Assembly (NCBI GenBank): GCA_907165135.1
Contig: OU015567.1
Location: 6,076,001-6,140,000, forward strand
Length of the DNA: 64,000 nt
From: Oikopleura dioica
Taxonomy: Eukaryota > Animalia > Chordata
Direction of reading: 5' to 3'
Shown in pieces: positions 1 to 44,719 of this stretch. The position numbers were made by a program, and so were the translations under genes. Below the pieces are notes generated by a model. It was not told the origin of the DNA. It saw nothing but the letters and a program-made list of their open reading frames with translations, and did no database searches. The first letter of the stretch is position 1, and each line of letters opens with the position of its first letter.

Positions 1-160
1 TGAAAACTCATGTTTTTCGTGAAAACTCAGCTTTTTCGCGAACACTCAGGATTTCGTGAAAACTCAGGTTTTTCGCGAAAACTCACGTTTTTCGTGAAAA
101 CTCGGGTTTCTCGCGAAAACTCAGGATTTCGTGAAAACTCAGGTTTTTCGTGAAAACGTT
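1..160. repeat. Degenerate ~20-bp tandem repeat (gaaaactcaggtttttcgc-like), truncated at window start
   Basis: About 7 imperfect copies of gaaaactca(g/c)..tttttcg(c/t) visible; unit is partly self-complementary (gaaaac...gttttc). Confidence 0.75.
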
Positions 161-1075
161 GTCGTTTTTTCTCGAAGTTGAGTATTTTCAAGGTCGTAAT
201 CTTTCACTTCACTTCCTTCAAAACATATTTTTAACCATCATAAAAAATGCGAATTATGAGCAAATAAATAGAACGTCTGAAATTCTCGCGCCGCGTCATA
301 AATGCTCCACTGTCTAAGACTTTCTTTGTAGCTGGTCGAGGATTCTCAGACAGGGCGGTCCTCTCCTTCTTTCTTTGTTGTTGATTCCAAAAAAGAGAGT
401 AATTTTTTAATTGGCGAATTAGCGAATTTCCGGCTTTGGAAGGCTTCGAAGCCGCCTTTGCAGAATTATGAATGTTAAGTCTGTCCCGATTCGTAATTAG
501 CAGCGGCGGCGGCTTTGATGATTCCGAATTTCCGTTCAGCCCGACTGAATGCGAAAAATCCCCTCACCCGTTTTACGATATGGCGCTCACAAGGAAGTCA
601 TTCTCACTTTTTCCTTCCTTTTCCGAAAAACACGCTAGAAACAAAAAATTATCAGAGAAATTATCAGACCAGCCTTTTTTTAACCAAGCGATTTTGTCAA
701 TTTTGGACACTAAAAAAAAGGTAAATATCAAATTAAAAAATGAGGAAAGCACCTGTTTTTATGATGAGTCAGCATTTTAATGATCATTATCGTAGTTTTC
801 ATCATATGATTAAAAAAGAAAAATAATCGTTTGAAAAAAACCACCTTGTGAGAAAAATCTCCTTTGTTACGACCCAGGAACAGACCGAACCCCGGAAAAA
901 TAGAATTTAATTTTAACGACTGAACTCGCTCTTTTTCCCACCGCCAATCCATCATCAATTCTTTTCCTGATGATTTATCGGCCGTAAAAAAGTTTAACAC
1001 TCCAGCCACTTCCATTTTACCTTATTTGGATTCTTTTTTTTCTTCCATGATTTCAAACCTCAAAATTTTAAGCTC

Positions 1076-1208
1076 GAAAAATCGAGAAGCCGCTTGCGGC
1101 TTCGAGTCAAAAAATAGCGCGGCTAAAATGCTTTCTTGACTCGAAGCCACGCGTAGCGCGGCTAAAATCTATTTTTGACTCGAAGCCGCAAGCGGCTTCT
1201 CGATTTTC
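1076..1208. mobile_element. Palindromic MITE-like element
   Basis: gaaaatcgagaagccgcttgcggcttcgagtcaaaaa at the left end and its reverse complement at the right end. Shares the aagccgc/gcggctt motif with the MITEs at 1988 and 4302. Confidence 0.7.
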
Positions 1209-1987
1209 AATTCACCAAATCATTTTTTTCAACGATCAAAGAACCAGTTTTTGGCTTCTTTTTCGAACCAAAACAGGCCCTTTTTTCATTTGAAAAAGGA
1301 AAAGAAAACATGCAAGTGCGATGACAATGTGTCGAAAGCGTTCAACCCCGATCTGCCGTTTCCATTTGAAAAGGACCAAATTCGGCAGTTTGAGAGACAC
1401 TTAGGGACATCTGATTTTCGCGTTATCGGGGGGCTGCTGTCCGATTGCGATTTTCGCCCCGGGGCGCAGAATTCGCACTTCAAAGAGGTGTTGGGCACGC
1501 GGTGGCGTCGCAGATTGTCGCATTAAACCCTCTAGTTGGCGAAGTGGAAGCGTCACATTCTACTCAAACGTTCTATCGAAATCAGAATCAGACAGAAAGA
1601 GTCTGTCCATAGAGATAAGGAGACACTGCCAGCAGACACCGTAGCGCACATCCCATTCAAGCCAAAAAAAGAGAGAATCCAAAACAGGTAGAAATTTTCA
1701 TTTTTTTCAAGAAAGAATTCTTTGAACTTGTAAAATCCAAAATTGCGGCTCTTTTGATTACGAGAGTTTTTACGGTGTGCGAATGGCGAAAAAGAGAAAA
1801 AGTAGAAGCGGCTATTCCGCTTTGAATCGCCGGCATTTACAATTCTGGCTCGCAGCTTTATAACCATAATTAACGCACTAACCTTGGTTCAACAGCGAAT
1901 TTCAATTTTCTACCAGAGTTATTATGGGCTGCTCAAGTTTCAAAGGCGAACATTTAATGGTCAATCTTTCCACTGTGTTCTCTAAAC

Positions 1988-2233
1988 CTGGGCTCGGGAT
2001 CCTGTGTGCAAAACCTGAGTCAGGCTCTAAAAGAGCAAAAATGAAAAGCCGCGCAGCGGCTTTCTTGAAAACGAAGCCGCGAAGCGGCTTCGCGAGTATT
2101 GCCTTTTCACCCTATTTTAACATTCTTGCGAAGCCGCTTCGCGGCTTTGTTATTAAAAAAGCCGCTACGCGGCTCTTCATTTTCGCTCTTTTAGAGCCTG
2201 ACTCAGGTTTTGCACACAGGTTGCCGAGCCCAG
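1988..2233. mobile_element. hAT-like MITE (246 bp, long TIRs)
   Basis: Termini CTGGGCTCGG...CCGAGCCCAG, arms inverted over ~110 bp, 8-bp flanks ctctaaac/gtctaaac (7/8). An 8-bp TSD is characteristic of hAT. Confidence 0.8.
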
Positions 2234-2581
2234 GTCTAAACTAAGCAGAAATCATGGTTTATGGTTTTCTGAGTCAGGAACCTGAATTAATATACTGAAA
2301 TAATGAAAGTGAAAAATATTATGAATCCAAATCGGACTCATGGATTCCTTCCTCGTAAATCTGCATTCTCCCCCACCTCGTCACAGGCGAATAAGTTGGC
2401 CAATTTCAAGTTCTTTGTATGCCTATTTTGAAACGTAGAAGGAGTTAATTTCTGGCGTGGAAGAAGTCGTTTTTGTTCGCGCGCAGTTGACTGATTCAGA
2501 AAGACCAAAAAACTTAACCCGTAAAATCGTTTTTCAGGCAAGAAACTCAACGAAGAGAGAACGACTTCGAAAAAGTAAAAG

Positions 2582-3974
2582 ATGATGGAGCTGGAGCTCA
2601 TGAAAACTTCGCTGCCTCATGCTTGTATGAACGCGGAACTGCCGTCAGAGAAATCGATGATCACCAATGACGACATCGTCGAGGTGGTCGATTCTGGAAT
2701 CAGCGAAAGCGACAAAACTTTGGAGTTCGACGAGACATTGAACAACGCGATTATTCGACCCAACTTGGACAGCATCAGACGCATTCTCGGAGCGGATGGA
2801 ACTGAGCAAGCGCGAAAAGTTGTGGAAGAAAACACAGGGCTCATTCCAAAGTTTTACAAGGTAAGATCAGCTTTTCGAATCGAAAATAGAATTGCCCAAA
2901 TTCTAGCCCTACAAACTGCTCGAACAAACCGAATCTGGCAAGACTGTATCGCTCTACAAATGCAACTTCTGCGAGCAAGGTATGACTCATCCCTTCCTTG
3001 CTAAATTAATGTCCCTATCTGTAGTCTATCGAGGACACAACAGTATCGTCTACCACTGCCGCCGACACATTGGCGATTATCCATATCGCTGCGATGACTG
3101 TGGCTTCGTCGAGGTGTGCAAGGTCCGTCTTGAATGCTTGTTTCCCTCCTTTTTAAAGCTGTTTTCTAGTCTGGCCTCTCGTCTCACATGAATCGGACGG
3201 GTCACAAGAACTGTCGTAAAATCGACGCGACGCCCGTTCCCGGCCAGAACGCGGCCCAAGTCTCCACCCAAATCACCTCCAAAGCGCGCCCTCAAGCTGC
3301 CGATCTGGTAAATTGCCCTTTCCTTTGTTCCTTCATTTACGAATGATTATTTTCAGTTCAATCCCCTCAAAAGTCGCAATAATAAGCGTTCGCCCTCGTC
3401 CATGCCAGGTACGCCTTCTTCGCTAGAACCTTCCCTAATCTTCCCTAGATTATGTTCCATCAATGTCTCATTCGCCAAAACGCTCCAGAGTCGAGCAAAT
3501 CGACCTGCCAGTCCCAAATCCTCATCAAACTGCAAATCCCTGGAGGTAAAGAATCGCTCATCCTTCTGAACAAAAATTCACGAAAATTTATAGACCGGAT
3601 GTGCTCGAATCAATCAGAAATTTCCGCAAAAACTTTGACGCCGACGCTTTCAAAAGCTTCCAGAATAATCAGAAGAACTTTTGCATGGTCGGTGGCAAAG
3701 GCTTTTCGACGCCAAAAGCAGAATCCGATGAGGACTCTAAATTCAGGTACGTTTTTCTGACAATTTTTCTGAATAAAAAAATCTCTAAAGTGATCCAAAA
3801 TCGACGTCGGAGGACTCCGAAATCGAAGAAGTTGAAATCATAGAAGAGGAAGAGCCAGCCAAGCACTCGCAAAAGCCCTCCGAATCTACTAAAGAATGGA
3901 ATTTCTGCCAAAAGTGCCGAGCAGGATGGTACAAGAGCGAAGCCAATTTCCTCGTACACCCTTGTTTTGCCTAA
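2582..3974 (+). CDS. Multi-exon C2H2 zinc-finger protein
   Basis: Spliced reading gives LYKCNFCEQ|VYRGHNSIVYHCRRHIGDYPYRCDDCGFVEVCK|SGLSSHMNRTGH; short GT-AG introns; last exon ends FLVHPCFA* at 3974. Internal exon boundaries approximate. Confidence 0.7.
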
Positions 3975-4301
3975 ATAATAATCTATCTTTTTGTAAATTA
4001 ATTTAACACTATCAAAAAGAGCACCTCACTTGCCTTGAAGAACAACAAAAAGAGCGGCTCGACATTCAAACTAAAAAAAATAAAGCCTCAATACTTCAAT
4101 CTTCTCAAAACAAATTGATCGTAGCCGTAATACACCTTTCTCTGTTTTCATCACTTCTTATCATTTTATACCTTCTTTTTTCCTCTTTTTTTTCTTGCAA
4201 ATCTTGTACAGAGAGTTATCTACTTCAAATGAACCTATCTATTGCAAATGACATTACTGTATATTTTCAAGACTGAAGTCTTGGCTCGTCAACCTTTGTA
4301 C

Positions 4302-4470
4302 AAATACCTGAGTCAGGGTCTGAAAAGCTCATATGAAAAGCCGCGCAGTGGCTTATTTATAAACGAAGCCGCGAAGCGGCTTTGCTAATAATTCTATTTG
4401 CGGCTTCGCTTATAAATAAGCCGCTGCGCGGCTTTTCATATGAGCTTTTCAGACCCTGACTCAGGTATTT
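4302..4470. mobile_element. Palindromic MITE related to the 1988-2233 family (outer termini absent)
   Basis: aaatacctgagtcagggtctgaaaagctcatatgaaaagccgcgcag and its near-perfect inverse; shares cctgagtcagg and aagccgcg motifs. Confidence 0.75.
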
Positions 4471-4591
4471 CTATACAGTTTCCGTTGCTCAGACGGAAGT
4501 CATATGCAAAAATCTTCAAAAATAAAAAAAGTCCTACAAAAATAGTTTTTATACTTCGTTGTATTTACATTAAAATAACATATTCAAGTGC

Positions 4592-4960
4592 TTATACAGG
4601 GGTTCCTTCATCGACACAGCCGATAGAAAGGATCCTCTTGAAAAGAGTTGAAATAGAAGAAAAGTTGTTGTTGTAAATATCTTGTCGGATTCGGTACTCT
4701 TCGATTTTCTGAACCTTTCTTTTTTCAACATGGGCTTTTCGCGTCTTTGGTCGAAGAGAAGTTGATGCTTTTCGTGTTTTTCGGGAAGTTTCGACCTTTT
4801 TCAGCGAGCGAGCGAAGAAGGCGTCCATTTCGGAAAGGGCTAGGTCGGAAGTTCGGGCAGCAATCATTGCGTTGGTGTTGTTGATGATGATTGTTGGTTT
4901 TGATGATATTTTGCCAAATCGACTCATCATACCTTTATACTGAATGGTTTGGAGCGCCAA
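4592..4960 (-). CDS. Small basic hypothetical protein, copy A (paralog at 41203-41566)
   Basis: ORF ...[34 protein letters not shown]...GCVDEGTPV* is nearly identical to the ORF at 41203; true start uncertain. Confidence 0.55.
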   Translation of the reverse strand: MALQTIQYKGMMSRFGKISSKPTIIINNTNAMIAARTSDLALSEMDAFFARSLKKVETSRKTRKASTSLRPKTRKAHVEKRKVQKIEEYRIRQDIYNNNFSSISTLFKRILSIGCVDEGTPV

Positions 4961-5530
4961 AGAGATCTAATAATAACAGGTGAGCTCATTGTCAGGTGGC
5001 CATTACAGTCTAATGCGCAGGTGATACACTTAATGATCATCATTAGGGAGATTCGCCTGGCGATAAGCCTCGTAGCATACGATTTTATATGTTACATATA
5101 ATATGTACCTACCGATGATAGCAGACTCGAATCCGGGGTTACGCCGCCACTAAGAGAATCCTGTATTGCGATTGGCTGACCGGATAACCTGTTCGCCATC
5201 CGTGGCGAACAGCTTCAAATCCCGAGCAAAGGCCTGCTATCACCGGTATATATATATTATATACAGGTATACATACAGTTATTGGCGTACATTTTCACGC
5301 ACACTTATAGATCTGAAACCGATTTCCGTTCCGTTCTGACGGTGAATCACAAAGGTTTACACTTCAATCGGATATTTCAGACGTAAATGATCATTTTCAA
5401 ACCTTAAGAATGTGCGTCTTTTTTCGGAAAAAATAATCATTTTTCAACTGGAATAATTTCCATAAATTATGGACGATAATCATCTGCACTATAAAAGCGA
5501 CCTGATTTTTCAGAAAAATGTAAATCAAAA

Positions 5531-5797
5531 ATGAAATTTGCCAAAATTACTCTTTTTTCTGCTGCTTTCGCTGATCTTCTCTCAATAAACCGAGCGATGA
5601 ATACCTTCAACTTCCATCGGAATTCTGATGAAAAGCTGATGTTGTCGCCGGAAGAGGATCGACTCCTCCAAAACATTTTCAGATTCAACAGCGCTATCGG
5701 CAAAGAATATGAGCGTTTCGTAATCCGCAAACAAGCGGAAACCTCTTTCAAGAGACAGAAAAATCTGAACTTCCGAAAGTATCACAATAAAACTTAA
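5531..5797 (+). CDS. Small putative secreted protein (88 aa)
   Basis: MKFAKITLFSAAFA signal-peptide-like N-terminus, ATG after aaaa, AT-rich flanks; no family recognised. Confidence 0.45.
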   Translation: MKFAKITLFSAAFADLLSINRAMNTFNFHRNSDEKLMLSPEEDRLLQNIFRFNSAIGKEYERFVIRKQAETSFKRQKNLNFRKYHNKT

Positions 5798-6431
5798 TCA
5801 TCTGGCAAAGGATCTGCCTTAATCCTTATTCAGTAAGTTCTTCATAAAAAAACAAAAAATCTTCTCTCAGTCAACTTTATTTCATGTTCTTCGTTTTAGT
5901 GTGCTCAAAAACATTTTCTTTGTAAATTTTTATTGGTTTTCTCTCACCTGTATTTTTCTATTTTATTTCATGTTTTTTCGATGTGTTCAATAATTGTGTG
6001 ATTTTTCTTGCAAAAGTTCATCTGGATAAAAATACGAATAAAACTTACTGAATAAAGGTTACTTCAAAGAGTTTATTTATCAAGAAAAAAATGAAGAATC
6101 ATTTTTTATTATCAAATACAGTAAGTTAACTTCCGTCTTAATTTCTTGAGAAGGAAATACCTTTCTCTATGTCTCTGTAGAAATTTCTGACCAGAAGGAC
6201 ATCTTTATAAGGCCAAGGTCGAGCGGCCCTGGCAGTGGGAAATCAACAAGTCTAAGGATGACTGAGCGTAGTAAAACTTTCAACTGACTAATTCGACAAA
6301 GAAAGGCCGCGCGCAGGGCACTTAAAATCATTATTCTCTTCAATCTTTTTAAGAGCCACGACGAAATATAAAAGAAAATTACGAAAATATTAAAAACATA
6401 AAAACAAAAGATAGAGAGAAAAGGAAGAACA

Positions 6432-9400
6432 ATGAGCTCCAGAAGAGCGAGGTCAAAATCATCAAATAGCCTCAAATCGGTAAAATAAAAAATATAATTT
6501 TAAGGATCCCCAGTAGTATTATCCTTTTCGTTTTGCGCGTTCGCACTATTCTTCTGAGAACAAACATCGCGGGGCGCGCGCTCATTGGCGGGCGCTCCGC
6601 CAATAGCGCTCAAAATTTAAAATTCAAGTTCAAAATCATTTTTCTCAAAAGAGAAGTTTTGCATGTTTTGTGTTGTTGTTTGTATTGTTTTGGATTGTTC
6701 AACACGAATTCTTGAATAATTCATGTAATAGCCAGTATTTTTACCAGGTTTTTTTATAGATTTGCTTTCGAGAAAAAACACGAGAAGATATGAAGAAAAT
6801 CAACGAAGAAGAAATAAAGATAAGTAAAAAATTCAATAATTTTCTAATTTCAACATTAAATTTGGTGAGCAATGCGCTCCAGACTTAAAATAAGGGTTGA
6901 ATAAAAACTGGGAGAGCTTGGTATCACTTGTTTGGATCTCGGTCCTGGGAAGTTTCTCGCTCATAATTAGGCTTTTTTAGTATTAGTTAGATTTTTAAGT
7001 CTGTGAGCATCGTGCTCCCATTATATTTAAAAATTTAATAGTTATAATTTTTCTAAATTCAAATCTAATCTAAAATGGTGAGCAATGCGCTCCAGACTTA
7101 GTTAGGCTTTTTAGTATTAGTTAGATTTTTTAGTCTGTGAGCACTGTGCTCCCGTTTAATAGAATTTAGTAGATAATATTATTAACACGTTAAAATAGAA
7201 AAAATAAACTATATTTTCAGCCCCAGCGACTGGAAGGAAGCTGACTTCGGCATCAAGCAGCTCTACGACGCTAACTGGATTATTTGCAACCCAACTACTC
7301 CAGGTAAAGCTTACCAATTTAGATCTTTCTTCACTAAAATTCTAGCCAACGTCATGCACGTCCATCGACGACAGATCGCTCTTCCATTCCGAAAGCCCTC
7401 ATTCTCATGACTCCCAAATCTCTTCTTCGACTTCCAGAAGCTCGATCCGAATGGTCAGAAATGGACCCTGGCACACAGTACAGACGACTCATCGGTGAAG
7501 AAGGCGCTGCCTCCAAGGTAAAATAATATCCTTCATTCATTACTTAAACTTTGCTCCATTCAGAACCCAGATAACGTCAAGCGACTGATATTCTGCTCTG
7601 GAAAGGTCTACTACGATCTCGTCAAAGAGCGAGCTGCCCGAGGCTTCGAAAACGATATCGCTATTGCACGAGTTGAACAGGTACTTTCAGCTTAGAGAGA
7701 TCAAAGGCTACATTTTATTCTAGGTCGCTCCATTCCCATACGATCTCGTCATTCCCGAGCTCGAGAAATACAAGAACGCCGAAGTCTACTGGGTCCAGGA
7801 AAAGCACAAGAACATGGGTTTCTACGACTTCTGCAAGCCTAGACTGCGAACTGCATCCAACTGGTCCCGCCGAGTCCACTACGCTGGCCGAGACTCCGCC
7901 GCCTCCGCCGCTGCTGGTTCCAAACAAGTAAGATTTCAGCCAAATTTGCAAAAGCTATTTTGCGTTTCAGGTTCACAAGATCGAGCAGGACAAATTCATG
8001 AACGACGCTTTCCGAAAGGGCGCCAAGGGTCGATTGTACAAATAAGCCACCTATTCTATCACTTACAAAGTACTGATTCCTTCCACAAAGAAAAACTATT
8101 GTCCTTAAAGCTTGTGTGTTCCCTTTTCTCACCTCCGTTCCTGTTGTTCAATAATTTATTAAAATAATGCACCTACATGCACAAACCTCCCTCTCTTCCC
8201 TTACGTTCAACAAAAAAAAACTTTCTAAAAATCCAACTACTAAAAATTTTGCCTGTTTTGTGTCTGAGGAAAAAAAAACTGAAACTCTTATTTATTCGGC
8301 CATTCGTTGTTTTGGCCCCGCAATTCATTGTAGCCTTCAGTAACTGGTATCAGCTAATCAAAGTAAAAATACAAACTGTGTGTACTAATAAGTTGAAAAT
8401 ACAGTAGAGCGCAGTCCGATACAGTGCTCAAAAAGTTACTTGTAATGAGCAGTAAGGCGTCGAGTAAACCGATTTTGCGAAGAGTTTATGATCATTTAGA
8501 CAGGTAAGAACGATTCTAGACGTCGAAACGGCTCTAGAAATGAAAAAAACATGGCTTATCAACTTTTCAGTGAGCCTGAAGATCTGAGAAAAAAGCTCTC
8601 TCGGGTGCGTGATTCTTTCGATGCTTTGGACAAAGAACTTTTTCCCTCTGGCAGGCCGAAAGATATCTACCGAGAACCCCAGCTTTTTCCTGGAACAGAA
8701 GATGGGAGGGATAAACATCATCGTCGAGTCAGAACTGTCAAGCCTGTGTTGAAACGAATCGTTGATCCGATCGAACCTTCCAGCGGAGAAGAAGATGATG
8801 ATCTTGTGATTGTCGATTCGAAGCCGGGAAAATCAAGAAAGCACCGGAAAAGGTCGGGTTTCCGGGAAAGAAGAAAGAAACGAAAGCGGTCGAGATCTTC
8901 TAGTCCAAGTTAGAGTTGCAATTTCCCTTAGAGCATGCCCATTTTGATCTTTCTTTTTTCAACTCTTTCAAAAGTCGAAAGCATCGCTCAAGATCGCGCA
9001 GTCCTATCCGCCGGCGAAAGAATCGATCCAGAAGTACAAGCAGAAGTATGCATTACTGCTCGAAGCATCGATCGAAAAAGTCCAGAAGTGAAAAGAGGGA
9101 GAAACGCTTGAGTCGTCGGAAAAGCAGTTCTACGAGTAAAACACAAGAAAAACTTCCTCAGACTCTTCCTCCTCGACAGAACAACGACGAGCTCATCGAA
9201 TCTCCCAAATGCTGTTTCTAGTGGCGATCAGTCCTGTTCAAGAACTGCTAGCTCTGATGTCTCTCGCACAGGCGTTCTCCAAAAAGAACAAAAGGGCAGT
9301 ACAACCGATGTCTGGTCAGAAGCATCAATCAGAAATGCTCGACTCTCGATGATGATCGTGCAAGTGGATAAAATCCGAAACAAGGTGAAAAAAAATCGAA

Positions 9401-12400
9401 AATTCCCGAAGCACACGCTGAAATCTGTTGGATAGTTCCTCATCATCAGAGCCGATTACTGGCCGCTCGACTGAATCTGATGGAGATAAGAATGCTGACA
9501 CTAGGACTCTCCCTGCTCGAGCTGTTGCTAGTCAACTCGACGCTTATTTTTGATGGTAGCTTGTCTTACAGCAAACGCACGGTAGAGCATCTTTTCCTAG
9601 GTAATATCATCTGCCATCGTGGACAAGTAAATCGGTGAATCTGTTTGTCTCATCCGCGAAATGTTCAACTACGCTCGCGACAATCAACCCTGCATTATTT
9701 TTATGGACGAAATCGACGCTATCGGTAGCAGACATCTTTCAGAAGAAATCTCTGCTGATTGTGGAATCCAAAGGTATCTTTACTTCATTTTTTCTAAAGC
9801 TTAATGTCGCTCGCAGTACTCTGATGGAATTGCTCAATCAAATGGACGACTTCGACACGCTCGGAAAGGTGAAAATGATCATGGCGACGAACAGACCTGA
9901 CACGCTGGATCCTGCACTTTTGCGACCCGGTTGTTTGGACAAAAAGATCGAAATCCGTATGAAGCCACCTTAGAAAATCCTTGATCTAAACTCAATTCTA
10001 GCACTGCTAAATGAGCAAGCTCGACTTGACATTTTGAAGATTCACTCGCGTCCACTCGCTACTCACGGAGGAATTGACTTCGAGGTAATCTTGTTTTCGC
10101 TTCTCTCCCTTTTTCACCCCTTTTTAATAGGCGGTTGCCAAGCACTCGGATACATTTAATGGAGCTGATTTGCGAAACATTTGTACAGAAGCAGGTCTTT
10201 TTGCAATTCGATCCGAACTCTTCAACAAAGCCGACCACTCACTTTGCAAGAACAACGAGACAAACTATTTCTCTCTCTCTCTTTTCTTTTCTTATCATCA
10301 CTGTTTCTTTTTGTCAACTAGTCATTCAATACAAAGGCGATTGTTCACACGCATTCTTTAATTCAAAAAAAACTCGTGTTTTATCTTTCCTTTGCAATAT
10401 AAGATTCATGATGGAAATAGAAAACTCAGCACTCGTTTGATATTTCTGACAGTTATCCTTATCTGTCTGCAGCGCGCATAAATTTAGACAGTTTTGTAAT
10501 GGTGAAATTGTTGGCCGATCTCAAAGTAGGAGAAATTCGTAAAGAGCTTGCTTCGGTGCAAGAAAGTACGAGGGGCAAGAAAGCTGAGCTTCTCCAAAGA
10601 TTATCCGACTTTTTGACAAGCAATGACTTTAATCCCGATACCTACGATTTTGCTACTCATTCTCTGATGCCGGTATCTGACGGCGAAGGAGAACTTCACA
10701 TTGTCGAAAATGAGCAAGAATCCTCTGCCACGGACGCAGAAGACCATGAAGTCCAAGAAATTCACGATGGAACCTTGAGAGTGACAGTTTTCGAGTCGAA
10801 GGATGAAGCTGACAGCCAATGTGATAATCTCCAAAATGGGGTTAAATTCGTGCACAAGCCCCATCGGTCGTTTCTACGACTTATGCAATCCAAGGGGGTC
10901 CCCAAACGCGGGAAAGATTGGCGATCATGGGAAACGTCGGCTATCGGGGTCATTCTACAGCCAATTTTTGGGTTGGATGGTTTTGGCGATTACGACTTTG
11001 CAGTTGTGGAGGAAATAAAAAAAACTCGAACTGGGCTAGAGTTTAGACATTGCATAGAGAGATTAGACTTGTTCTATTCTCTAAACATAACACCAGATGA
11101 GAATGGGGCTGTCTTAGGTGATGAGTACATACACACCATCGACAAACTTCTCTGTGCAGAAAAGAAGCGATTTTGTCTTCCCCAGCGCCACGAACTTACT
11201 TCATTTATTTATACACCAAAAAGCAAATGGAAGAGAAAAGAAAAAAAACAAGTTAAATTGCACATCTCGCCTGATAACTACCCCATCCTCGAATGGAAAC
11301 ATTTCCAGTCCATCGCCGAATGTTTCATCACCAAAAAACATCGGTACTACAAACTTTACATGAAAGAACGAAGCAAAATGACGAATGGAGTTTTCCGGAA
11401 ACATATACGACAATCAGCAAGTGATTTTCATGCCCGATATGGTGATATAACAGCAAGATCCCATCTTGTGCAAATTGATCATATTGATGATTTTGAAAAG
11501 TCAGTATGAGTAAATTTACCGTTTAATCATTTTTCTACTAGTGCGACTCGAATCGCCCAAGAGGGCGCGATAGCTGAGGGAGATGGAGATATCAGCCTTG
11601 CAATCGAAAAATACGCCGAAGCAATCGCCTTGGATCCGACGAACAAGGTCTACTTCGGTTATCGATCGGACGCGCTCCTCCAACAAGAGCAGTTCCCCGA
11701 AGCTCTTAGGTAATAAGATTCAATTTTTATCCATCTCTCCTTTATTTCTAGTGACGCGGTGAAAGCAATTGAACTTGAGCCCACATGGCCAAAAGGCTAC
11801 GCCTTGAAAGGGCAGATTTTGATGGCAACAAAGAAATTTGAGGAGGCAAAAGTCGAGTTCGGAATGATGAAAAAGTTCGATGAATCTCCTGACGAAGCTA
11901 TCGAATGGTTAAATATCTGCCAGCAAGGTAAATCAAGCTCAAGGATCACTTACTTATTTTCACTTTTAGAAGAGGAAAAGGAATGTGCTCATCGTGAACG
12001 AACTGAAGAAAGCGTCAATCAAGCTACGTTGGAAAGAAAGCAAAAGGAGCAAGAGATCGCTTCGGCAGAAGATGAACAGCCTGCGCTCGAAGTAAAACGA
12101 AACGAGTATCGAGAAAAAACTGGTGTCGTCTTGGAGAAAGTCAGCAAAAGTAAGTTGATTAAGTCAGAACAATATTTACAAGAATTCAGAGCCTGTTCGG
12201 CGCAGAAAGCGTTTGTTGAGCAGTGACGAGGAAGACGCAGCGGCTAGTTCAAGCGATGAGAAGAAGAAGAAACAACGAGACTCGGATGAAGAGACACCTG
12301 TTCTATCGCCTTTCAATCCCAAGCACAATAATACAGAAGTCACTGAAGACGATTCGTCTTCCGATGATGATTCCAACGCAGAGGTAGCAGGAATAATCAA

Positions 12401-15400
12401 TTATAGAGCTAAGTTTATCATTAAGGCCGATGTACAACAGCAAGCGATGCTTTCGTCGATCAGTGGTGAAGAAGCCGGACCACCAAAGCCACAGAAAGAC
12501 ACTTTGGTTAGTTCAAACGATGGAGCATCTACTGATATTGCGGCTCCAACGCCGGTGGTCGCTGCTTTGGATGATCAGAAGATCGCTGAAATGCGTGCCA
12601 AGATCTGGGAGTCGAACGAAAAGCTCAAATTGCTGGGCGCTAGAATCCAGAAGTTCGATAATAAGAGCGTTAACAGGATGAGGTTTCGCTCTATGATCGA
12701 CTTCTTGCGTCTAGCTTACGATCAAATGTCGAAAAAGCTTCATCATCTCGTCGAAACCGCCGGCAAGGAAGGGCTTGCACCCTTGGAAATGGAAGTCGCA
12801 AGTTTGGGAAAATCGCTGGAGCAGTTGTCTAGCGATATTTTTGACGAAGAGATGCACTGGCACAATCAGCAGCATGAATTGGACAGAATCAACCAAGAAA
12901 AACGGCAGCCACATCAGCCAGCGATCGCAACTCCTCATCAACACAGTCAACTGTCAAATATGCCGTCACAGCATTTTCAACCTCCTCCTCAAATGAGCTT
13001 CAACCAGCGATTTACTCCCCAAAATAATTTTGGCCCCCCTCAGCAGATTCCTCCTCATCATCAGATTCCTCCTCATCAGCAGATTCGTCCTCATCATCAG
13101 ATTCCTCATCACAGACAGTTCATGCAACCACTTGGCAACAGCCAGATGAATTTGCCACGCCGTGGACCAGTGGCGAAAAATGGATGCAAACCAGCGCAAT
13201 CCACAAAAAGAAAAAGAACAAAGAATTAAAATGAAGCTGTTCTTTTTGTATTTTATAATTTTGTATTTTTCGAGCTCTTTATAAAACCGGAAAAGCTGTC
13301 ATTTTAGGATCCCGGCTCTCCTACAATATATCTCACATTTATGTGTAGAAGTTTATTAATTTATTTTCAGGTTCAGTTTACAAAAGCGAAAATATTTCCT
13401 AGGAAGTTTTTCCTGATCCGCTTTGAAGAGAAACAAACTTGGTGCGAAGCTCGCGACGATTTCGTTTTCGAGCAAAGAATTCCAGAAGGAAGCGAAGAAA
13501 AGTCTCTTGATAAGAATGGAAAGTTTATACGTGTTTTGCGCGAACGAGCGGAAAAGTTACTCAAGAATGAGGGTGGAAGTCGGCGCTGCGAAGGTAAGTC
13601 CGATCTTAAAACGAGATCGTAGGGCCTTCATTCACGACCTGGAAGATGAATTTAAAACGGTCAGAGTTGCATCGCTGAATTCTCTTTGCACCTTAGCCGC
13701 TAAAGAGTCCACTGGAGATTTCGCCAAGCAGTCGATGGACTACATGGTAGACATGCTCAACGATGAATTGGAAATTGTTCGCCTGAATGCGATTAATAAC
13801 TGCGTAAAATGGCTTCGCGAGTTCCTGTTATGCTGGAAGATCAGAATGAGAATGTATTGACGAGCTGTTTGCCCGATTCTAGGCGAGAAATTAGGTAAAA
13901 TCATTAAAGAATGGGCAAAAAAGATAATTTACGGGCGAAAAATTTATAAAGAAAGCGCTATTTCTCCGTTTCATCTTTATTTCAGAATTTCTACCCATCG
14001 ATTACTGTCCTGCTGCCGTCTTCTGTCCAAAAATGCCTGAATCGAACAGTAGAAGAGCTCATCCAAAGTCTTCAAAAGTTCCCCGAGGACGAATCATCCA
14101 TTTACGTAGCTGTTTGCTGCCTGTTAAATGCCGACGTCCCTCTTCATGCACAACAATTGTTGGCTCACAAGATCCAGAGCCCATTAGAAAAAGAAGCTGT
14201 CTGAGGCCTGGATCTGTTGGAAATCTGCGTTCGATCCTCTGGAAAACTCTTTCACAATGAAATCGGAAAATATAGATTTTTAAATGAACTTATCCGCGTT
14301 GTCTCTCCCAAATATCTTGGACCAAGGTAACGTGGCTTAAAACCTGGCTTATCGCATGAGCATCAGTCCGCTGCGCTCCCCCTCTCGCCTCGAGTTCGGA
14401 GGACTTTCATTTGGAGGACCTCTTTTTGCGCCCTCACGCAGATGTAGGGACTTGTAATTTGCTTGACCTCCCAAAGAAAAGCCACTTGACTAAAATTTAT
14501 TTTGTTTTTAGGTCATCACCGCAGGTTAAAACTAGAATTATTGAATTGATGTATGGTTGGACTATTGCATTAAAAGGTTGAGCTTTTCTTATTCTTACAG
14601 CTACTGACTTTGAGTTTAGACCAAATAAAGATTGCTGATGCGTATTCAATGCTCAAGAAACAAGGCATCGTCAAGAAGGACCCGAAATTCGACGACAGAA
14701 GATTTCTCCCTACTCCTCAACAAAAAGAAAGGTACCAATTTAATCAAAATCAGTGTTGAAACATTGTTCAGGTGCGCATTAATAAAAGACGATGCTGAGG
14801 AAAAGCGACTGGCGGAACTTCTTGCGTCCAAGAATCCAGAAGACATCGCCCTGGCAAATGAAATGATCAAAACCATGTACGAGCAAGACAGTTAAAAGAC
14901 CGATCGAGAGGCGCGCAAAATGCTTTTGATGACAGAAGCGAAGGAAAAATACATGCTCATGGATGATATGATTGCTGCTGGAGCTACGTAAGGCCAAGTT
15001 CTTCTCTCATTTATTAACACTCTCTGAATAAAGAGCGAAATCGGCGATGGCAACAGTCTATTCGGACTTGGAATCAATGAGGCCACAGCTCTTCCGTCTC
15101 GCGTCAGAAGCAAATGAAAACAACGATGAGTTGATGGCGGTCCTCAGGCTAACAGATGAAGTCAATCGAGTCATCAATGTCGTGAAAGATAAATACCCCA
15201 ATGTAGTGGAGCTTTCGAAGTAAATTCTTTCTCATATTTCCTCCCTATTATTGTATTCTAGCGCTTCTACGCCAACTTCAAATTGAAGCAGCGTTCCATC
15301 ATCTGGTCTCACTGCAACATCAAGTCCGGATACCCAAACTTCTCGCCTCCACGACCTCGGCGTCGACTTGAACCTGCTCGGCCTCGAGGATGATCCTCCA

Positions 15401-18400
15401 TCGAACAGACCAGCTCAAAGTAGTGGAAATGTGATCGACGATTTGAAAACTCTGAACAGTATATTTGGGTCCTCTCCAATGGGAGAAGCACCGTAAGTCT
15501 CAAGAATTTTCTCTTAATCAATTTATTAGCTACGATCCTTGGCAGAGGTAGTTTTATAAAGGATTTTGTTCATTTATGCATGCATTTATTATCAGCTAAC
15601 AATTTTGCCTTTACTCGTCGATTTTGATGATTACTGAAGTTCTAACAATTTTTTCAGTCAGCCAACTCTGCTGGATATTAACCCATCAGCACCTTCTGTA
15701 TCCGCCATGACGAGCCAAGCCAGTCCCCAAATCGCTGTTTGGCCCACTCCACCCGAAGTGGCGGCTTTGACGGGAATCAAAGTCAATCTCGCTGATTTCC
15801 AGGCTTCTTCGACGACAAGAACTCTTGTCGACGATGATGGAGTCAGAGTCATCCTTGTCCGAGGAGAGAATAAAATTCAAGACAGAAGTGATGTCCCTGT
15901 ACTGCTAGTCACTTTTGATTCGACAAATCCTGCACCTATCGAGAATTTAATGTTCAATGCTAAAGTTGCAAAACCTTTCAGGTAAGAATCCTTTTCACTT
16001 CGAATCCTTTCAAACATTTTCTTTCAGAATAAAACTATTACAGCCATCAGGCAACGAGTTCCCTGCGTTCAACCCCGTTTCATCAACTTCTTCGCGCATT
16101 ACACAATTGATTCTAGTGGGAGGGCCGCTCATCCCAAATCAACTGGCAGCTCTCTGCGCCAATACCTAAATAATGTATGGGTAGTAATTTATGACTGTGG
16201 TCTCTGTTCGTAAACGAATAAACTATTTTATCAATTTTACCAATTGACAGAAGCCCAAAATGGACATTTTGTCTTTTCTTAAGTTTTGAATCCTAGGAAG
16301 CATGCATACCGCGTAGCGGTAATATTGTTGAAGTATTAATTATCCATTGCAATTTTCCTACGCAAAAGAAAGGGCTTAATTGATATTCGTGCATGTATAT
16401 AATGCTAAAGGACGCAGGTACGCAGTTTTTACTAAAGTGAGATATGAAATGTACGTGGATTGTACTAAAAAATATGCATGCTTACTCAAGGAATAATAGC
16501 GATCACCTTCCAAGATGCAATTTTCAGAGTCCAAAAAAGCACCTGTTTCCGAAGTAAAAGTAAAAAGAAGGAGAAAGAAAAAGCCAAATATTTTCCTCGC
16601 TATCTTTACTAATTCTTTTTATGCGGCGAAGCCCCCTTCAAAATCAACAGATTCGTAGGACAGAGGCTTATCGGCCAACTCTGGATTCCTCTCACGATAA
16701 TCGGACTTTTTGGCCCACCAAAAGTACGAAAAAGATAGCAACAGACGAGTCTCATTTCCTGGAAATATCTCATCAACAAGAAAGTTTTCAAAAGTTGCAT
16801 GGAGTTTGCAGATTTTTCATTTTATTCAAAAAAACAGGAAAAGAGCAAAAGTTTCGGGATAAAATTTGATAAAGATAGTATTGCTTGTCATTTGATGAAC
16901 AAATTTAATAAAGCTAATATTGCTTGTCATTTAATAAACGAATATGATGAAGGTTGTCTATTATGGCAATAATGAAGAATAAGTTAATCATTTTATAAAA
17001 TTAAGCAGTAAGAGTATAAAGTAGTTTTAACAGAGTAAATGGTAAGAGGTACATTGTTTAGGTGAACTATAACGATTCATTTTATCATGATACGAACATA
17101 TATCTCATTTCATTTTACATATGAAATATTAAATTGCTTGGAATAAACAATGATATACCACAAATAGTGTTTCATTTTGAATACTTTGGAGCGTTTCTAT
17201 GCAAAATTTACTTTGTAAAGCTCATTTAGCTCATTAAGCATAGCTTTTTTTTGAATGGTTGTCTCTTTCGAAAGGGATTTTTTCACCTCATTTTTTATTA
17301 ATGAAGTGAAGGAGAAATTTTCTTCTTATATTCGCAAGAAAATAGGGCGCATAGCATGAGATCAAGAGTCGTAAATATTTGAACGACCTAGAAATTGACG
17401 TTCAAAAAGTTTTTCCGAGCGATGTTGTTTGGTAAACCTACTTCAGAAACTCACAATTGCCCTCAATTGTCCTTATCTGTCCGACTTGTTACGTAAAGCT
17501 ATGAACAGCATGCTCGAATCATTTGTTTTCTATTTCCGTGGTCCTTTATCCCTTTATCGGCTGATTTAGGAGCTTCGCTTTTTTCGCCATCATTTTCTGA
17601 TTCAGTTGACGATTCTTGATCCGTCAGACCGATTTAGCGGTTATAAGGAAACGCCGGTGAAGACAAGGCTCATTTTATCCAAGAAATTTATTTTTTTTGT
17701 GTTGACAATGGAAATCGACGCTCTCATGAGAGAACGCGAAGACCGCCTCGGTCTTCGAGATTTAGCCCTCGAAAAAGAGAGTGAAAGTAAGTCTGATATT
17801 AAGTAAGACAGAAAGATTATATGCGATTTAGGGGAGGATGAAATCAATGCACTGGAACAAGAGCGACAGGAATTGGAACTACGATTGTTTGAGATGGAAG
17901 AAAGGGTTATTGAAGCCCAGCAGGAAAGAGAAAGATATCAAGCACTTGCACAGCTAGCGCAAAATGATGCTGATCGACGTAAGCTTTTAAATTTAACACA
18001 GATAAAGACACTTATCCCGAATTTTAGTTGAGGATGAAATAATCGTGAGAATCAATGCTATGGAAAATGAAGAAGAAAACAACGACGAGGGTTTCGTAGA
18101 GGTGGATGAAGATTTGGATGATCTGAGCGACGAAGAGAATGCTGATTGATGATTTTTTTTTGACGAAGTACACTGAAAACAGGTTGACACTTGTAGCTGA
18201 CACAATTGGAATAAAATAAATAACTACCTTCAATACTATTTGTATTTTTCTATGCAGTCACTTCGCATTTGCAACATGGTTTGAACTTCAGATTCAGATT
18301 TATAAGTCAGCTGAAGGGAGTCGACTTGATTGAGGTTTCGAATATCTGGGAATTCTTTGAAGCCGATTTGCTTGCGTTTTGATTCAGAGTTCGTGCTAAA

Positions 18401-21400
18401 TTTTGCCAGCTAAATAACAAGCAATTCATCTTACATTAAAAAAACGATAAGTCTTTGAAATTCGACGAGTAGTAAAGACGGGTCGTTGAATTTCTTGGCA
18501 TTTTTTTCTAAGTCGTCTATGTCGTCGTAATTTTCAAAGATATCGTAATCAAAATAATCTCTTCTTTCTTTCTCCAACGACGCGAAAGAACTCCAATCAA
18601 GGGGAATAACCGGCAAGAACCTTGTTATTATAAATAAGTTTGAATGTTTTTGGCGTTTTACCTTACTACGTTTTTTCTAAATCTGCCATTTATTAGACCC
18701 GATAATATGTTTTCGTCTTGAAGCCCATTCAACTTCTTGAGTTTCAAGCAGGCCCAGAAATTTTCAGTTGGGAACCCTGGCCATAAACAAATCGTACATA
18801 CTCCATGAAAGTTATGACGCCAAGAAACACTGAAGTTTTCAAGATAAATCGCGTCGAAGATATTTAACTCTCCGTAGAGCCTTTCGATATCAATTGGATC
18901 GGCACGTCTTTTGCGGATGGTGATTTTGATTATATTTTTTCTAGTATTAAGAAGAAATAGTGTAAGCAAGCATCCGGGAATAATCGATTTAAACATAACC
19001 AGGCCAGCAGTTGAAATCAACGGATTAACAGAATTTCGCCGATTTTTGCAGCTCCCGATTTCCCAGCTGTCTATTTTCTCTGGGATTACAGAAGCCAGCT
19101 CATCAGGATTAACAGCACAAAATGCCTTCATTTACGTCTTTTTTCGTTTTTTTCTATTTTGAGGTGCAAAAACGGAACCGTGAACTAAGCTAATCAATTG
19201 TTTGCAAATGAATTGACACTGTTATTTTATAGTCGCGGAAGTTTTATTTCTTTGCGGAAAAAAAGGCGAAAAAGTGGACAAGTTGATCTGTGAAATGAAA
19301 GAATAAAAAGACAAGCTAAACGATGAGGATGAATAATTATAATAAGTCGAGTACTGGAGGAGTTGTTTTATTCGTCTGAGTCGGACGAAATCGTTATGAC
19401 TGCATCAGTTTTCGCTTTTTTCGTAGCTGGTTCCTTGAATAAGGTCTTTTGGATTGGTAGAATAACTTTGCATTTACCTGAATCTCCTCCGAGTTACGAC
19501 GAAATAAAAATCTTTTCCATGCCGGTTTTCCGGCGAGTCTTAATTTTGAAGTCAGAACTATTCTCAATAAGAGTTGAGACTAACTTTTGACGATATAAAA
19601 AGGGGTTCTTCTTTCGGGGCGTTGAAGGATTGATCCTTGTTGGGTCTTGATAATCAAAATTGATTGGAGTCGAAGGTCTAGCTGGCTAAAAGATAAAAGT
19701 CAGAATATGCACATAGAAGTAATAGATTGCCTGGAAGGAGTCGTCGTCGGAACTTTCCGAGTTGATGTTGCTTGCGAGTGCTTTAATTCTATCCGCAAGG
19801 CTCGTCTCGTCGTCGTTATCTCTCAGTTCTTTTTGAGTTTGCTCGTTCTCAGCATCGAAATCTCTCGTGTAAAGGTCTTGTGGGTCATCGTCCGCCACAG
19901 TTGGGTCATCATTGATTAACTCGCTCTCGGATCCTGCTTCCTCATCGCTTTCCTCCCTCTCTCCGAAGATCAGTCCTCGATGGACCGTTTGATCGAGATT
20001 TTCTTCATTATCCGTGTCATCCTTAATTATGAAATGAAACTCTCTTCGGAAAATTTAGACTAACTGAGCTAAAGTCTTCTATTTTCAAATCACACCGCGA
20101 TAATTGTCGCTCCAAAATTTCGTCTTCTGTCAAAATGACGGCTTCTGTTTGAGAGTCGGTGTCGGGGCAGTCAGGAAATTTTTTGCTGTTTTGGAAAAAT
20201 CTTGTAACCTTGACGCTGTCGAATTTTCCGATCGGGAGGCCGCAAAACGTATTTTGTAGTTTCCTAAATAAGATTAAGTTAGCTTTTATCAGAAAAATTG
20301 AAAACTTACGAGAATAAACGCGCTTGCATCAAAAATTCTGCAATCGAAACATCCTCACTCAAGTTTTTGACGACTTCATTGGCATACAATGGTTCGTACA
20401 ACGGTTTATTGCGCGCGATCTTTTTCAATTCGTTATCAACGTCGTTGCTGTCAAAGACCATCTGACCGGTAAAGGGCGTTATCGCTCTTGATTCAAATTA
20501 TGATTGTTTCTTGAAGAAAAACTTACTTTGAAATCAGTGAATAAAACCGGCCGTCGAGAATTCCTCCTTGAAAAGATGCAGGGTCCAGGCATTTTTCCGT
20601 TGCTTTAACGAGAGTACATCCATCCCGGTTTCCAATATCCATCAGGATTGTATGAACCTGGATTTTTCCGTCAAATCGCATCATGTATCGCGCGTTTTCA
20701 AAACGTACGAAAGAGAATTGAGGAACATCCCCGAATTCTTTAAGAACAATTTGATGCCTCGGAGTCGGTGCGACAATCCTCAGCAATATTATCGAACTTC
20801 CGTCCATGACGCAGTGAAGAGTTAGTTCGATTAACCTGATTACAAATAAGAACTTTTTACTAGGGGTTTTTCATACCTGTCATTGTAAAATTTTTTAGAT
20901 CCGTCTTCAATTGTAAACAACCATCCGCAAAGGCCTATGTCTTCGAAACCTTTGTTGGCAATCCATTGATTCTCACGTATCTTTTTCGGAGGTATTCGTT
21001 TTAAGCCGCAAGAGCTTTTTATTTCTTGGAATTTTCTCATGGTTCGTTTTTGCAAAAAAAAAACTTTGATGTTTTTTGGGGGGATTATCACGAAGGATGA
21101 ATGTCGTGAGAATTGCTGTTGGAAGGAGAATATTTGTCGCTGTTGCACTTGAGGGAGCTATTTGAAATAGCACGATTGAGCTAAGTTTTCATGACCACTT
21201 CGCAGTTGCTCCAAAGCAAACCCATAAACGCTCGTTTCCTAAAATTTTCGCACCAAAGAACTAAGAAACCACGTTCAAAGAGAAAACACAGCGATGAATT
21301 GCAACTGGTTTCCCGCAATTTGCGGCGAGAAGAACGAGGTAATAAAAAGATTTTTACAGAATTAATTCACATGAAAAATAGGAAACAGAGTCATATAAAG

Positions 21401-42696: not shown

Positions 42697-44719
42697 TTAT
42701 TGAGAAAAGCGTTCCCTGTAATCGAGAGAGTTTGAATAATTTTGAGCAGCAAGTGCTGAATAATAAATACAATCATTAACGGAAACGCCTGTAAAAGTAT
42801 TTCCTAAAAGTTTGATGCCATTTTCTTGCGCGAGTTGTTGAACTTTCTCGGAGTTTTCGAGGTGGTACTTGTTCATCAGAGGAATATCGGCTAAAGAAAT
42901 GTAGAAAACTGAGACTTAAGGGTGTCAACAACGATTTCCCCTTTATTCGATCGTTTTTGACACCCTTGAAAGGGTCTTACTTGGGCTCGGCAAACTGTGT
43001 TGAAAACCTTAGTCAGGCAACGCGGCTCTGCAGAACCTGACTCAGGTTTTCAACACAGTTTGCCGAGCCCAGGGTCTTACCAGTAACTTGATGTGTCCAA
43101 GAAACTTGAAAAGAGTCATCGAGAATTGCTCCTAATGCATCTTGCACCAGATTAGGCAGTTCTTTTTGAGGACGAGTAGACATGATTGTATACCTGGCTC
43201 CTCTGCCGTCGTGCTCTGGCATATTACTGTATCACAGGATAGAAAGTAGAATATAAAATCAAACTTTTTAGATTTGCCTTGAGCAAACTTAATGATAAGT
43301 TACATCCCGTCCCAAGAATCATAAATGACGCCGAGTATATCCGGATTCTCACAACTGGGCACGAGGAAGCCAAAACCAGGATTCTTCGGCAAGATCATAT
43401 TTTTCAACTCGACCAGGGTCACATAAACATTCGTCGATTCAAATCCTTCTAGGAGTTCAAAAAGCTCCTGGGGAAAGTCGTCAGGGTGGAGAAGAGTGCT
43501 GAGGATTTTGGGACTCGAAGTAGCGAAAATCTGGTTGAAGGATTTTTCTTCGCCGTTGCTATCCGCTATTGTAAGATGTTTTCCCTCTTTTCTGATCAGC
43601 TCCGCGGATGTGTTAACATGAACCGTTGCATTTTCAGCACGGTCGATTTCTTCGTTCATTTTGAGAATCATGTCTTCGAGTCCGTTTTTCAAACTCCAAA
43701 CTTTCGCCTTTGAACTTTTCGCACTGTCCATCGGCTGCGAAAAATAAGGCTCCAAAAACGGCTTGGCCGGAAAAGTATAGTCCGTGTTCCCAATTGATTT
43801 TAATATGTTCAGAGCGGGAATGCCAGTCATGAAGTATTTCTCCACCGCCGCCAGGGTATTTGGAACTGTGAGGTTTTTGGAACTCGTGGCATAGATTCCT
43901 CGAGTCATCGAATCGCTTTCAGAGGTTCAATCGTTTCGTTTTGAAATCAACGAAGAAGACGATGGATTAATCGAACCGTTCATAAAATAATCTGCTGGTT
44001 TTTGTCCGAAGGTTTTTTTGATAAGATTGTACAAGCTCACATCTCTCGGGTGGTTTTGCTTCTTGAAAAGGCCGAGGCCCATTTGCACCTTCTCCGCCCA
44101 GGTAAGCTTGTTGAACAAAAGCGCGCTGGGAAGAGAGTAAGGAAGGCGGGTGACTTGGCCGTCGAACATGGCGAAGCGGAATCGAGCGGCGGGGTCCTTT
44201 GCGGTTCGTAAAATGATGTCGTTTTCTTGCCAAGGCTTTTTTCTGAGAAGAAAGTTTTCGGAATGGATTTTTGTATAAAAGTATAAAAGCCGGGACCTTT
44301 CCTAGACCAAGTTCTGTCATCAAAGACAGTGCATAAGCCGAAGACTGTAAATTCGTCGCCACTCTGACTGAATGAGGTCCTGTTTCGAATAAACCGCCGG
44401 ATGGAGTTTTCATGGTCTTGATCCAACCACCCGTGGTGCTTGAGCTTTCGTAGAGATGGACATGGTGTTTCGGGCAATATCGTGCCAAGCGGTAGGTTGC
44501 GCTTAGTCCACTGATGCCTTTTTTCTAGCTCAAAAAATTTCTACTCAGTTTAAGCCAATAAGATTATTATTGTATGTTTGTTATTGTATATTAAATACTA
44601 TTGTTCAATCAGATAAGCCTTTTGATTGGCCCACAATCACAAAAATTTATATCAAAAATTAAAAACAGAAAACATAAATTTCGAGCTATTCCTGCACCAA
44701 TGATACCAACTTTCGGCAT
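42697..44719 (-). CDS. PPOX: Protoporphyrinogen oxidase
   Basis: MPKVGIIGAG|ISGLSATYRL, YESSSTTGGWIKT, FETGPHSVR, GFGFLVPS..ILGVIYDS, GNTFTGVSVNDCI; GA-AG and probable GG-AG introns. Confidence 0.92.
42981..43072. mobile_element. 92-bp hAT-like MITE in a PPOX intron
   Basis: TTGGGCTCGGCAAACTGTGTTGAAAACC...CCGAGCCCAG with perfect 8-bp TSD ggtcttac. Confidence 0.88.

Follow-up and report, generated by a model that had tools for sequence, protein, structure and literature searches.

How does a first intron of 33,336 nt come to stand in an animal genome whose median intron measures about 49 nt (PMC8008620)? The question is raised by a RabGAP-TBC gene of the chordate Oikopleura dioica, located in a 64,000-nt stretch of contig OU015567.1 that was analysed as a whole and is hereafter called the window. 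We read this locus as three nested layers, namely an intron that would measure 65 nt without its insertions, a 148-bp miniature inverted-repeat transposable element (MITE) within it, and a 33,113-bp Polinton (or Maverick) within the MITE, which likely arrived in that order, with the intron ending at an acceptor at 39815. Taken as one joint claim, this reading has in our estimate a probability of about 0.88.

Anatomy of the nested junction

The host gene meets the insertion downstream of exon 1 (6432-6479, plus strand; 16 codons, phase 0), which is supported by the N-terminus of the proteins P0032, P0033 and P0040 and by exon 1 of the metagenome loci L001-L004. Intron 1 as assembled (6480-39815, plus strand, GT...AG) is followed by exon 2 (39816-40366, plus strand), where the RabGAP-TBC domain starts, and the family assignment rests on PF00566 with an E-value of 1.9e-25, above the cut-off. 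The 24-nt 5' remnant of the intron (6480-6503, plus strand) ends in the left TTAA (6500-6503) and is succeeded by the first 8 bp of the left inverted repeat of the MITE (6504-6511), which continue into MITE sequence in X5 records 21 and 22. At this point the Polinton (6512-39624) splits the repeat, bounded by a left terminal inverted repeat of 59 nt beginning with AGTAGT (6512-6570) and a right one ending with ACTACT (39566-39624), and flanked by a 6-bp duplication, ATCCCC, whose left copy (6506-6511) belongs to the eight MITE letters and whose right copy lies at 39625-39630. Beyond it follow the remaining 140 bp of the MITE, including its right inverted repeat (39631-39770), the right TTAA (39771-39774) and the 41-nt 3' remnant of the intron (39775-39815, plus strand), with the acceptor AG at 39814-39815.

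Excision of 6512-39630 in silico brings together 8 + 140 = 148 bp between the two TTAA copies and restores the MITE as an earlier interpretation made from the letters alone (hereafter the sequence-only reading) had claimed, with terminal repeats identical in 17 of 19 columns (one gap, one mismatch). This TTAA pair scores 14, whereas the other 227 of the 228 TTAA pairs spaced 80-600 bp apart in the emptied window reach at most 4 and the 851 pairs of the unemptied control at most 7; the match between the terminal repeats is therefore not due to chance.

The Polinton-free allele and the order of insertion

In DNA run X5 (study P2), letters 1-55 of a 297-nt contig with a depth of 57.7 correspond to 6457-6511 and letters 50-297 to 39625-39872, with 0 differences; the two match rows were taken as one contig on the basis of equal length and depth and of the sum 55 + 242 = 297. 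This contig is the exact Polinton-free, MITE-bearing allele, it comes from a study other than that of the Polinton-bearing runs, and the Polinton ends therefore hold. Another contig from X5, 222 nt long and with 2 differences, likewise continues past 6511 into MITE sequence. The host-Polinton junction is crossed in X1 (record 4, 6428-6540) and X2 (record 9, 6230-6541), both of study P1, and the Polinton insertion segregates, the empty site being present in X5. In a comparison at 6511/6512 for which 19 records stand outside the matches listed, the Polinton terminal repeat is joined to other flanks in all four DNA runs (4/4), so other insertions share the Polinton end; the depth of X1, which is 257 and 292 at the Polinton ends against 94.6 at the host junction, gives a rough hint of about three copies.

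The sequence-only reading had regarded the ends of the element as validated, which stands because the repeat is restored, the 6-bp duplication is present and an empty allele exists, but not on account of intron size, as set out below. It had also proposed the order intron, MITE, Polinton, and here the evidence agrees: the intron is found in three orthologous loci that contain neither element, and since its position is common to diverged lineages it is older than the MITE, while the Polinton is the younger of the two elements, given that its duplication lies within the left repeat of the MITE and that a MITE-only allele exists. An X1 contig over 6316-6505 appears to represent a second allele (depth 45 versus 94), its alignment stopping at 6457, and a second MITE-bearing allele is visible at 39689-39869.

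Acceptor and size of intron 1

Nine AGs occur between 39775 and 39899, and exon 1 remains in the TBC frame only with those at 39815 and 39839. The sequence-only reading had instead taken the AG at 39791-39792 as the acceptor and let the next exon begin at 39793, a choice that leaves the TBC frame and runs into a stop after 98 aa. The use of 39815, with exon 2 beginning at 39816, is supported by the frame and further by 23 RNA reads of X11, in which the loose end before 39815 equals a diverged exon-1 end (agreement 0.98); X8 contributes eight RNA reads at the locus. Five proteins were compared, two of which have no N-terminus, and the three informative orthologues are identical at 186/199, 180/199 and 180/199 positions with the acceptor at 39815, versus 29 of 85-90 columns with that at 39792. 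Four of five metagenome loci cover the site, and all point to the same acceptor: L001, L003 and L004 have introns of 54, 54 and 62 nt without MITE or Polinton, whereas the exons are joined in L002.

Emptied of both elements, intron 1 would measure 24 + 41 = 65 nt; the MITE raises this to 217 nt, and the assembled intron has 33,336 nt. The empty intron of 42 nt that had been put forward is correct as a sum (24 + 18) but not as an intron, and where an intron 1 of 42 or 194 nt had been predicted for other alleles or orthologues, the Polinton-free allele has 217 nt and the orthologues 54-62 nt. Nor does the agreement of 42 nt with the typical minimal intron validate anything: mapped host introns do measure 39-49 nt (13/13, four of them from the OGDH cargo described below), but 37% of AT-rich sites, and 51% of sites overall, have by chance an AG in the 11-base span that yields such a size, so the fit carried no weight.

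Several observations weigh against the nested reading. No MITE-free allele was found among the four DNA runs, so that an empty MITE site is not seen in the population; the orthologous introns barely align with the 65-nt remnant (one alignment, with L001), and for these two reasons the length of 65 nt is to be taken as reconstructed. The window itself may derive from X1 and X2, and among the records listed none crosses the entire Polinton. The X11 reads stem from a diverged population (151 of 153 are under 90% alike) and are silent on the 33-kb intron. In X6, two contigs match 6463-6511 with 2 differences, and one of them departs at 6511 into a C-run and non-MITE sequence, perhaps that of another element or subfamily sharing the same end.

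Classes of the MITE and the Polinton

Besides its TTAA duplication and its terminal inverted repeats, the MITE has GG...CC purine-purine ends, whereas piggyBac elements have pyrimidine ends. This combination fits a Kolobok-type MITE, as judged from its sequence; Kolobok or T2-type MITEs are likewise described with a TTAA duplication, purine-purine (GG...CC) ends, short inverted repeats and no coding capacity, although the ends of Xenopus T2 are AGGRR and those here GG (PMC6004289). Summed contig depth over 39631-39770 reaches about 1500 in X1 and about 970 in X5, compared with 114-211 and 149-200, respectively, over exon 2, which is a rough sign of a repeat and not a copy number; no second copy of the 148-bp MITE occurs within the window. 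Further MITE-like inverted repeats lie at 1983-2238, 4291-4481, 42980-43073 and 1078-1207, two of which share the ends of the element in intron 3 and have 6-bp duplications, and an 11-nt tandem array within an inverted-repeat pair at 61084-61588 is probably another MITE.

The Polinton contains the following predicted core genes. A protein-primed family B polymerase in pieces (23560-27849, minus strand; 3' limit approximate) matches PF03175 (E 2e-4) with one piece and PF00136 (E 2e-3) with another, in each case below the curated cut-off, and contains in order what we take to be the motifs of that family. The double jelly-roll major capsid protein is an uninterrupted frame of 426 aa (29361-30641, plus strand), assigned through Atlas (0.96 to a PF21738 cluster), Foldseek matches to major capsid proteins (E down to 1.5e-9) and VIA (Z 8.8, rmsd 9.1, 288 aligned), on a model whose pLDDT is only 49; a sequence search of solved structures with this protein gave no match, and viral-contig scans with the capsid, a polymerase piece and the capsid alignment returned no relative. 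An adenain-like cysteine protease (32200-32637, minus strand), also an open frame, matches PF02902 above the cut-off and PF00770 at E 0.018. The retroviral-type integrase, again in pieces (33358-34300, minus strand; 5' limit approximate), matches PF00665 on one piece (E 2.8e-7; 31.2 bits versus a cut-off of 32.6). A likely packaging ATPase (35400-36093, plus strand; 5' limit approximate) has what are presumably a P-loop and a Walker B-like motif, read by eye, and its frame gave no relevant Pfam match.

The ends AGTAGT/ACTACT, the 59-nt repeats at 95% identity and the duplication ATCCCC, present twice here and once in the empty allele, are those of Polintons, for which terminal repeats with (AGT)2 or (AG)3 ends are described (PMC8097293). 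By its predicted core genes, ends and 6-bp duplication, the element is a Polinton/Maverick (PMC8097293, PMC10748475, PMC6431247); it shares with the class described there the (AGT)2 ends, terminal repeats and 6-bp duplication as well as the family B polymerase, rve integrase, protease and double jelly-roll capsid, and it departs from it in size (33 kb versus typically 13-25 kb, still below the upper range of 40 kb) and in carrying about 9 kb of host-type cargo. Mavericks are mentioned as annotated in Oikopleura dioica (PMC8502044, PMC5240408). Between cargo and polymerase, 17700-23460 contains a number of frames that belong to no known family and show short intron-like gaps, together with tandem repeats of 42 nt and 24 nt; the frames are likely Polinton accessory genes. 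Short direct repeats with small hairpins occupy 6836-7180, slightly inward of the left end, and imperfect GC-rich inverted repeats lie at 39358-39490 in the vicinity of the right end.

Host-gene cargo in the Polinton

The left part of the Polinton contains pieces of host genes, all on the plus strand. The first comprises 3' exons of 2-oxoglutarate dehydrogenase E1 (OGDH; 7221-8045), with four host-sized introns, a PF16870 match and correspondence to residues 793-1008 of P0015. It is followed by a piece of the proteasome ATPase Rpt4/PSMC6 (9631-10220, limits approximate; PF00004 and PF17862, the best solved-structure matches being subunit 10B at E 1e-20), by SAP-domain (PF02037), TPR and Q/H-rich frames with no source gene identified (10499-13229), by an internal piece of Integrator subunit 4 (INTS4; 13624-13857; INTS4 chains, E 2.4e-12), and by GAT and GAE parts of a GGA adaptor (14629-15982; PF18308, PF03127; GGA1 appendage, E 1.1e-4), in which no VHS domain was found. 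Introns are mapped in the OGDH piece and implied for the Rpt4-to-Q/H block; because the cargo has kept them, capture was probably from the genome and not from RNA.

The same pieces recur elsewhere. The full-length OGDH gene (P0015) is on another chromosome, whereas a second copy of the OGDH piece, model chr2.g6973 (P0004), equals that of the window over the 199 residues compared, and both share three substitutions relative to P0015. The Rpt4-SAP-TPR-Q/H block recurs in the X-region model XSR.g15471, where P0046 and P0055 of the present locus have 960 identical residues, 3 substitutions and 14 gap columns; a search with the SAP frame gave nine matches, of which only P0046 is close. In this reading the Polinton family is recently mobile and present in a few copies, and its cargo would have been captured once from genomic DNA and then have spread with the element. 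That the other cargo copies also lie in Polintons is something we infer, and it counts against this step that a search with the capsid returned four metagenome proteins and no gene model of Oikopleura dioica, which gives no tie between those copies and Polintons.

It is unlikely, though a serious alternative, that the cargo is instead a second element inside the Polinton, such as a Helitron or another capturing transposon, and that the other copies move without any Polinton. Helitrons typically carry strings of gene pieces that lie on one strand (PMC6431247), insect Polintons carrying nested transposon cargo have been reported (10.1101/2025.02.07.637071), and the evidence covers the other copies as gene models and not their surroundings. 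Yet no Rep or helicase family appeared in the 145 element frames scanned (31 + 114), a gene that non-autonomous Helitrons would lack in any case; one strict pattern found no hairpin-plus-CTRR end in 6512-24000; and there is no second long-repeat pair inside the Polinton. In addition, a 729-nt contig of X1 starting at 6525 (46 letters aligned), with a depth of 257 versus 94.6 at the host junction, hints that other copies share the left end through to the cargo. Carriage by the Polinton itself is thus the reading we retain.

Pack-MULEs are gene-capturing elements that carry same-strand gene pieces with their introns to new loci. The present element is similar to them and to gene-capturing Helitrons (for the latter, PMC6431247) in moving same-strand, intron-bearing gene pieces, but its carrier is a capsid-encoding Polinton in which no MULE or Helitron hallmarks were found. 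A further parallel is provided by nematode Mavericks, which have 2-5 kb of intron-bearing, host-derived cargo adjoining the left terminal repeat (10.1101/2022.07.12.499685); there, however, as described in that source, a whole cargo gene accompanies intronless core genes, while here the cargo consists of pieces of at least four unrelated housekeeping genes of the same species, with no sign of interspecies transfer. If a cargo built from pieces of several housekeeping genes recurs at other loci, Polintons would join the elements capable of exon shuffling.

Two gene models touch on this cargo. P0003, which matches the window exactly, fuses an upstream zinc-finger gene (2582-3928) to the OGDH cargo (7221-8045) while omitting TBC exon 1, and P0004 fuses a PDZ gene to the second OGDH copy; these fusions are likely annotation artefacts or real trapped transcripts. 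They serve as a warning to annotators that public gene models join host exons to Polinton cargo at two loci.

Putative introns in the core genes

Nine breaks interrupt the frames of the core genes (five in the polymerase, three in the integrase and one in the ATPase), and six of them fall within clean GT-AG stretches of 42, 42, 42, 42, 45 and 45 nt, each a length divisible by three that lies in the size range of host introns. These stretches lie at 26466-26422, 24789-24748 and 24407-24366 in the polymerase, at 34238-34194 and 33844-33803 in the integrase, and at 35439-35480 (42 nt) within the P-loop of the ATPase; on this evidence the three genes are likely spliced by the host. A first scan, restricted to the pattern GT[AG]...[CT]AG, found a stretch at 5 of 11 positions. 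In a looser scan of eight positions, from which 27851, 24020 and 32639 were excluded as frame ends (the polymerase was later found to extend beyond 24020), all eight positions, representing seven distinct breaks, were crossed by an intron-like stretch scoring 5.3-15.6. A fair background is offered by the antisense strand of the polymerase, where frame-keeping stretches scoring at least 5 cover about 6% (7 in 4.8 kb). The intron-like stretches show no repeat character in a self-comparison of the Polinton. An altered genetic code was considered for the polymerase stops and rejected, as these mix TAA and TAG.

Other features of the data tell against splicing. The middle integrase break, near 33960, has a candidate stretch of uncertain limits, and the polymerase breaks near 24120 and at 23930-24005, towards its 3' end, have no fitting short intron; the latter two may represent real damage, longer introns or assembly errors. 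The background of 0/5000 obtained for the looser scan is biased low, since open frames were sampled, intron-like scores are frequent on both strands, and some test positions were picked after inspection of the first scan.

The core genes might accordingly be decayed fossils, with intron-like stretches arising by chance and the element mobilised by a helper copy, a possibility we consider improbable. The two unmatched polymerase breaks, the frequency of high-scoring stretches on either strand and the erosion of most vertebrate Mavericks (PMC8097293) speak for it, as does the fact that splicing of the core genes is read from DNA. On the other side stand the six breaks in frame-keeping GT-AG stretches of host size, the open capsid and protease frames, and the cargo copies, which are more than 99% identical in protein; we continue to regard the core genes as likely spliced.

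Intact vertebrate Polintons/Mavericks showed no introns according to PMC8097293, in contrast to the six clean stretches predicted here, although intronless core genes are a common and not a defining trait of Polintons. Dinoflagellate polinton-like viruses bearing introners offer a likeness, in that elements of Polinton type possess spliceosomal introns and the host is gaining introns, but their introns are recognisable introner transposons, whereas those here would be host-sized stretches of 42-45 nt in an animal (PMC12166617). A literature search whose coverage stopped short of key papers on the transposons of this genome, which may have it in print, returned no account of this Polinton or of introns in Oikopleura Polinton genes. 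Host-sized introns in Polinton genes, if real, would indicate a long nuclear life and bear on the question of whether animal Polintons are viruses or transposons.

Integrity of the inserted block

It is very improbable that the 33-kb block was created by a join in the assembly, or that it combines two Polinton copies enclosing ordinary host genes. Its left half is indeed filled with intron-bearing host sequence, and no listed record crosses the entire block; against this, an identical 6-mer stands at both ends, the empty allele is without exactly this block, the left junction is crossed in two runs, and the host sequences are only pieces, with the full OGDH gene on another chromosome. The same nesting with an empty intron of 42 nt can be set aside almost entirely and is refuted as the main splice form: an AG is present at 39791-39792, the sum is 42 and the mapped host introns (13/13) are of similar size, but the stop after 98 aa, an intron end in AAG where 12 of the 13 mapped introns end in TAG or CAG, an acceptor score of -1.7 versus +1.7 for 39815 (a weak difference) and RNA reads, orthologous proteins and orthologous loci at 39815 contradict it, with a minor alternative use of this AG still conceivable.

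Proposed sequence of events and its significance

A Kolobok-type transposase would first have moved the MITE into a TTAA of intron 1. An integrase of the Polinton family would later have inserted the large element, duplicating 6 bp in the left repeat of the MITE, and the split repeat probably fixed the MITE in place. The Polinton itself may have taken up intron-bearing host DNA beside its left end once and then spread with this cargo, and its core genes, given their intron-like stretches, presumably undergo nuclear transcription and the same splicing as host genes. At the present locus, the insertion likely traps the TBC transcript after exon 1 at cargo acceptors, since acceptors on the sense strand, along with a 3' end, are supplied by the first cargo piece, roughly 700 nt into the Polinton; the predicted join of exon 1 to 7221 leads to a stop after 23 codons.

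Nesting as such is ordinary, but this locus offers a clean dated series of intron, MITE and Polinton with a segregating empty allele, and a 33-kb intron amid such short ones provides a direct test of whether the spliceosome bridges such a gap. The Polinton matters more than the nesting, as it is cargo-laden, probably intron-bearing and recently mobile. We tentatively suggest, at slightly under even odds, that it is an animal Polinton of recent mobility in which the genes for polymerase, integrase and ATPase depend on the host spliceosome, that it ferries a chain of host gene pieces with live acceptors, and that this virus-like element thereby works as a mobile gene trap and shuffles exons within the most compact genome of any chordate.

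Other introns of the host gene

Intron 3 of the TBC gene (40531-40721; 191 nt, GA...AG) is made up entirely of a high-copy MITE of 185 bp and a single copy of a 6-bp duplication, from which both splice sites derive, and the intron is absent from all four orthologous loci covering the site (4/4), which suggests a recent intron made by a transposon. The last intron (41135-41728) measures 594 nt, compared with about 50 nt in L002, L003 and L005; within it lies a 298-nt copy, at 87% identity, of the coding-like sequence at 4572-4869. L002 is without introns 1 and 4 but retains 2 and the last, as in a partly spliced transcript or a mixed assembly. In L003 (814-1405), the exon-2 match exceeds that of L001 by about 40 nt, suggesting an extra intron in the L003 lineage.

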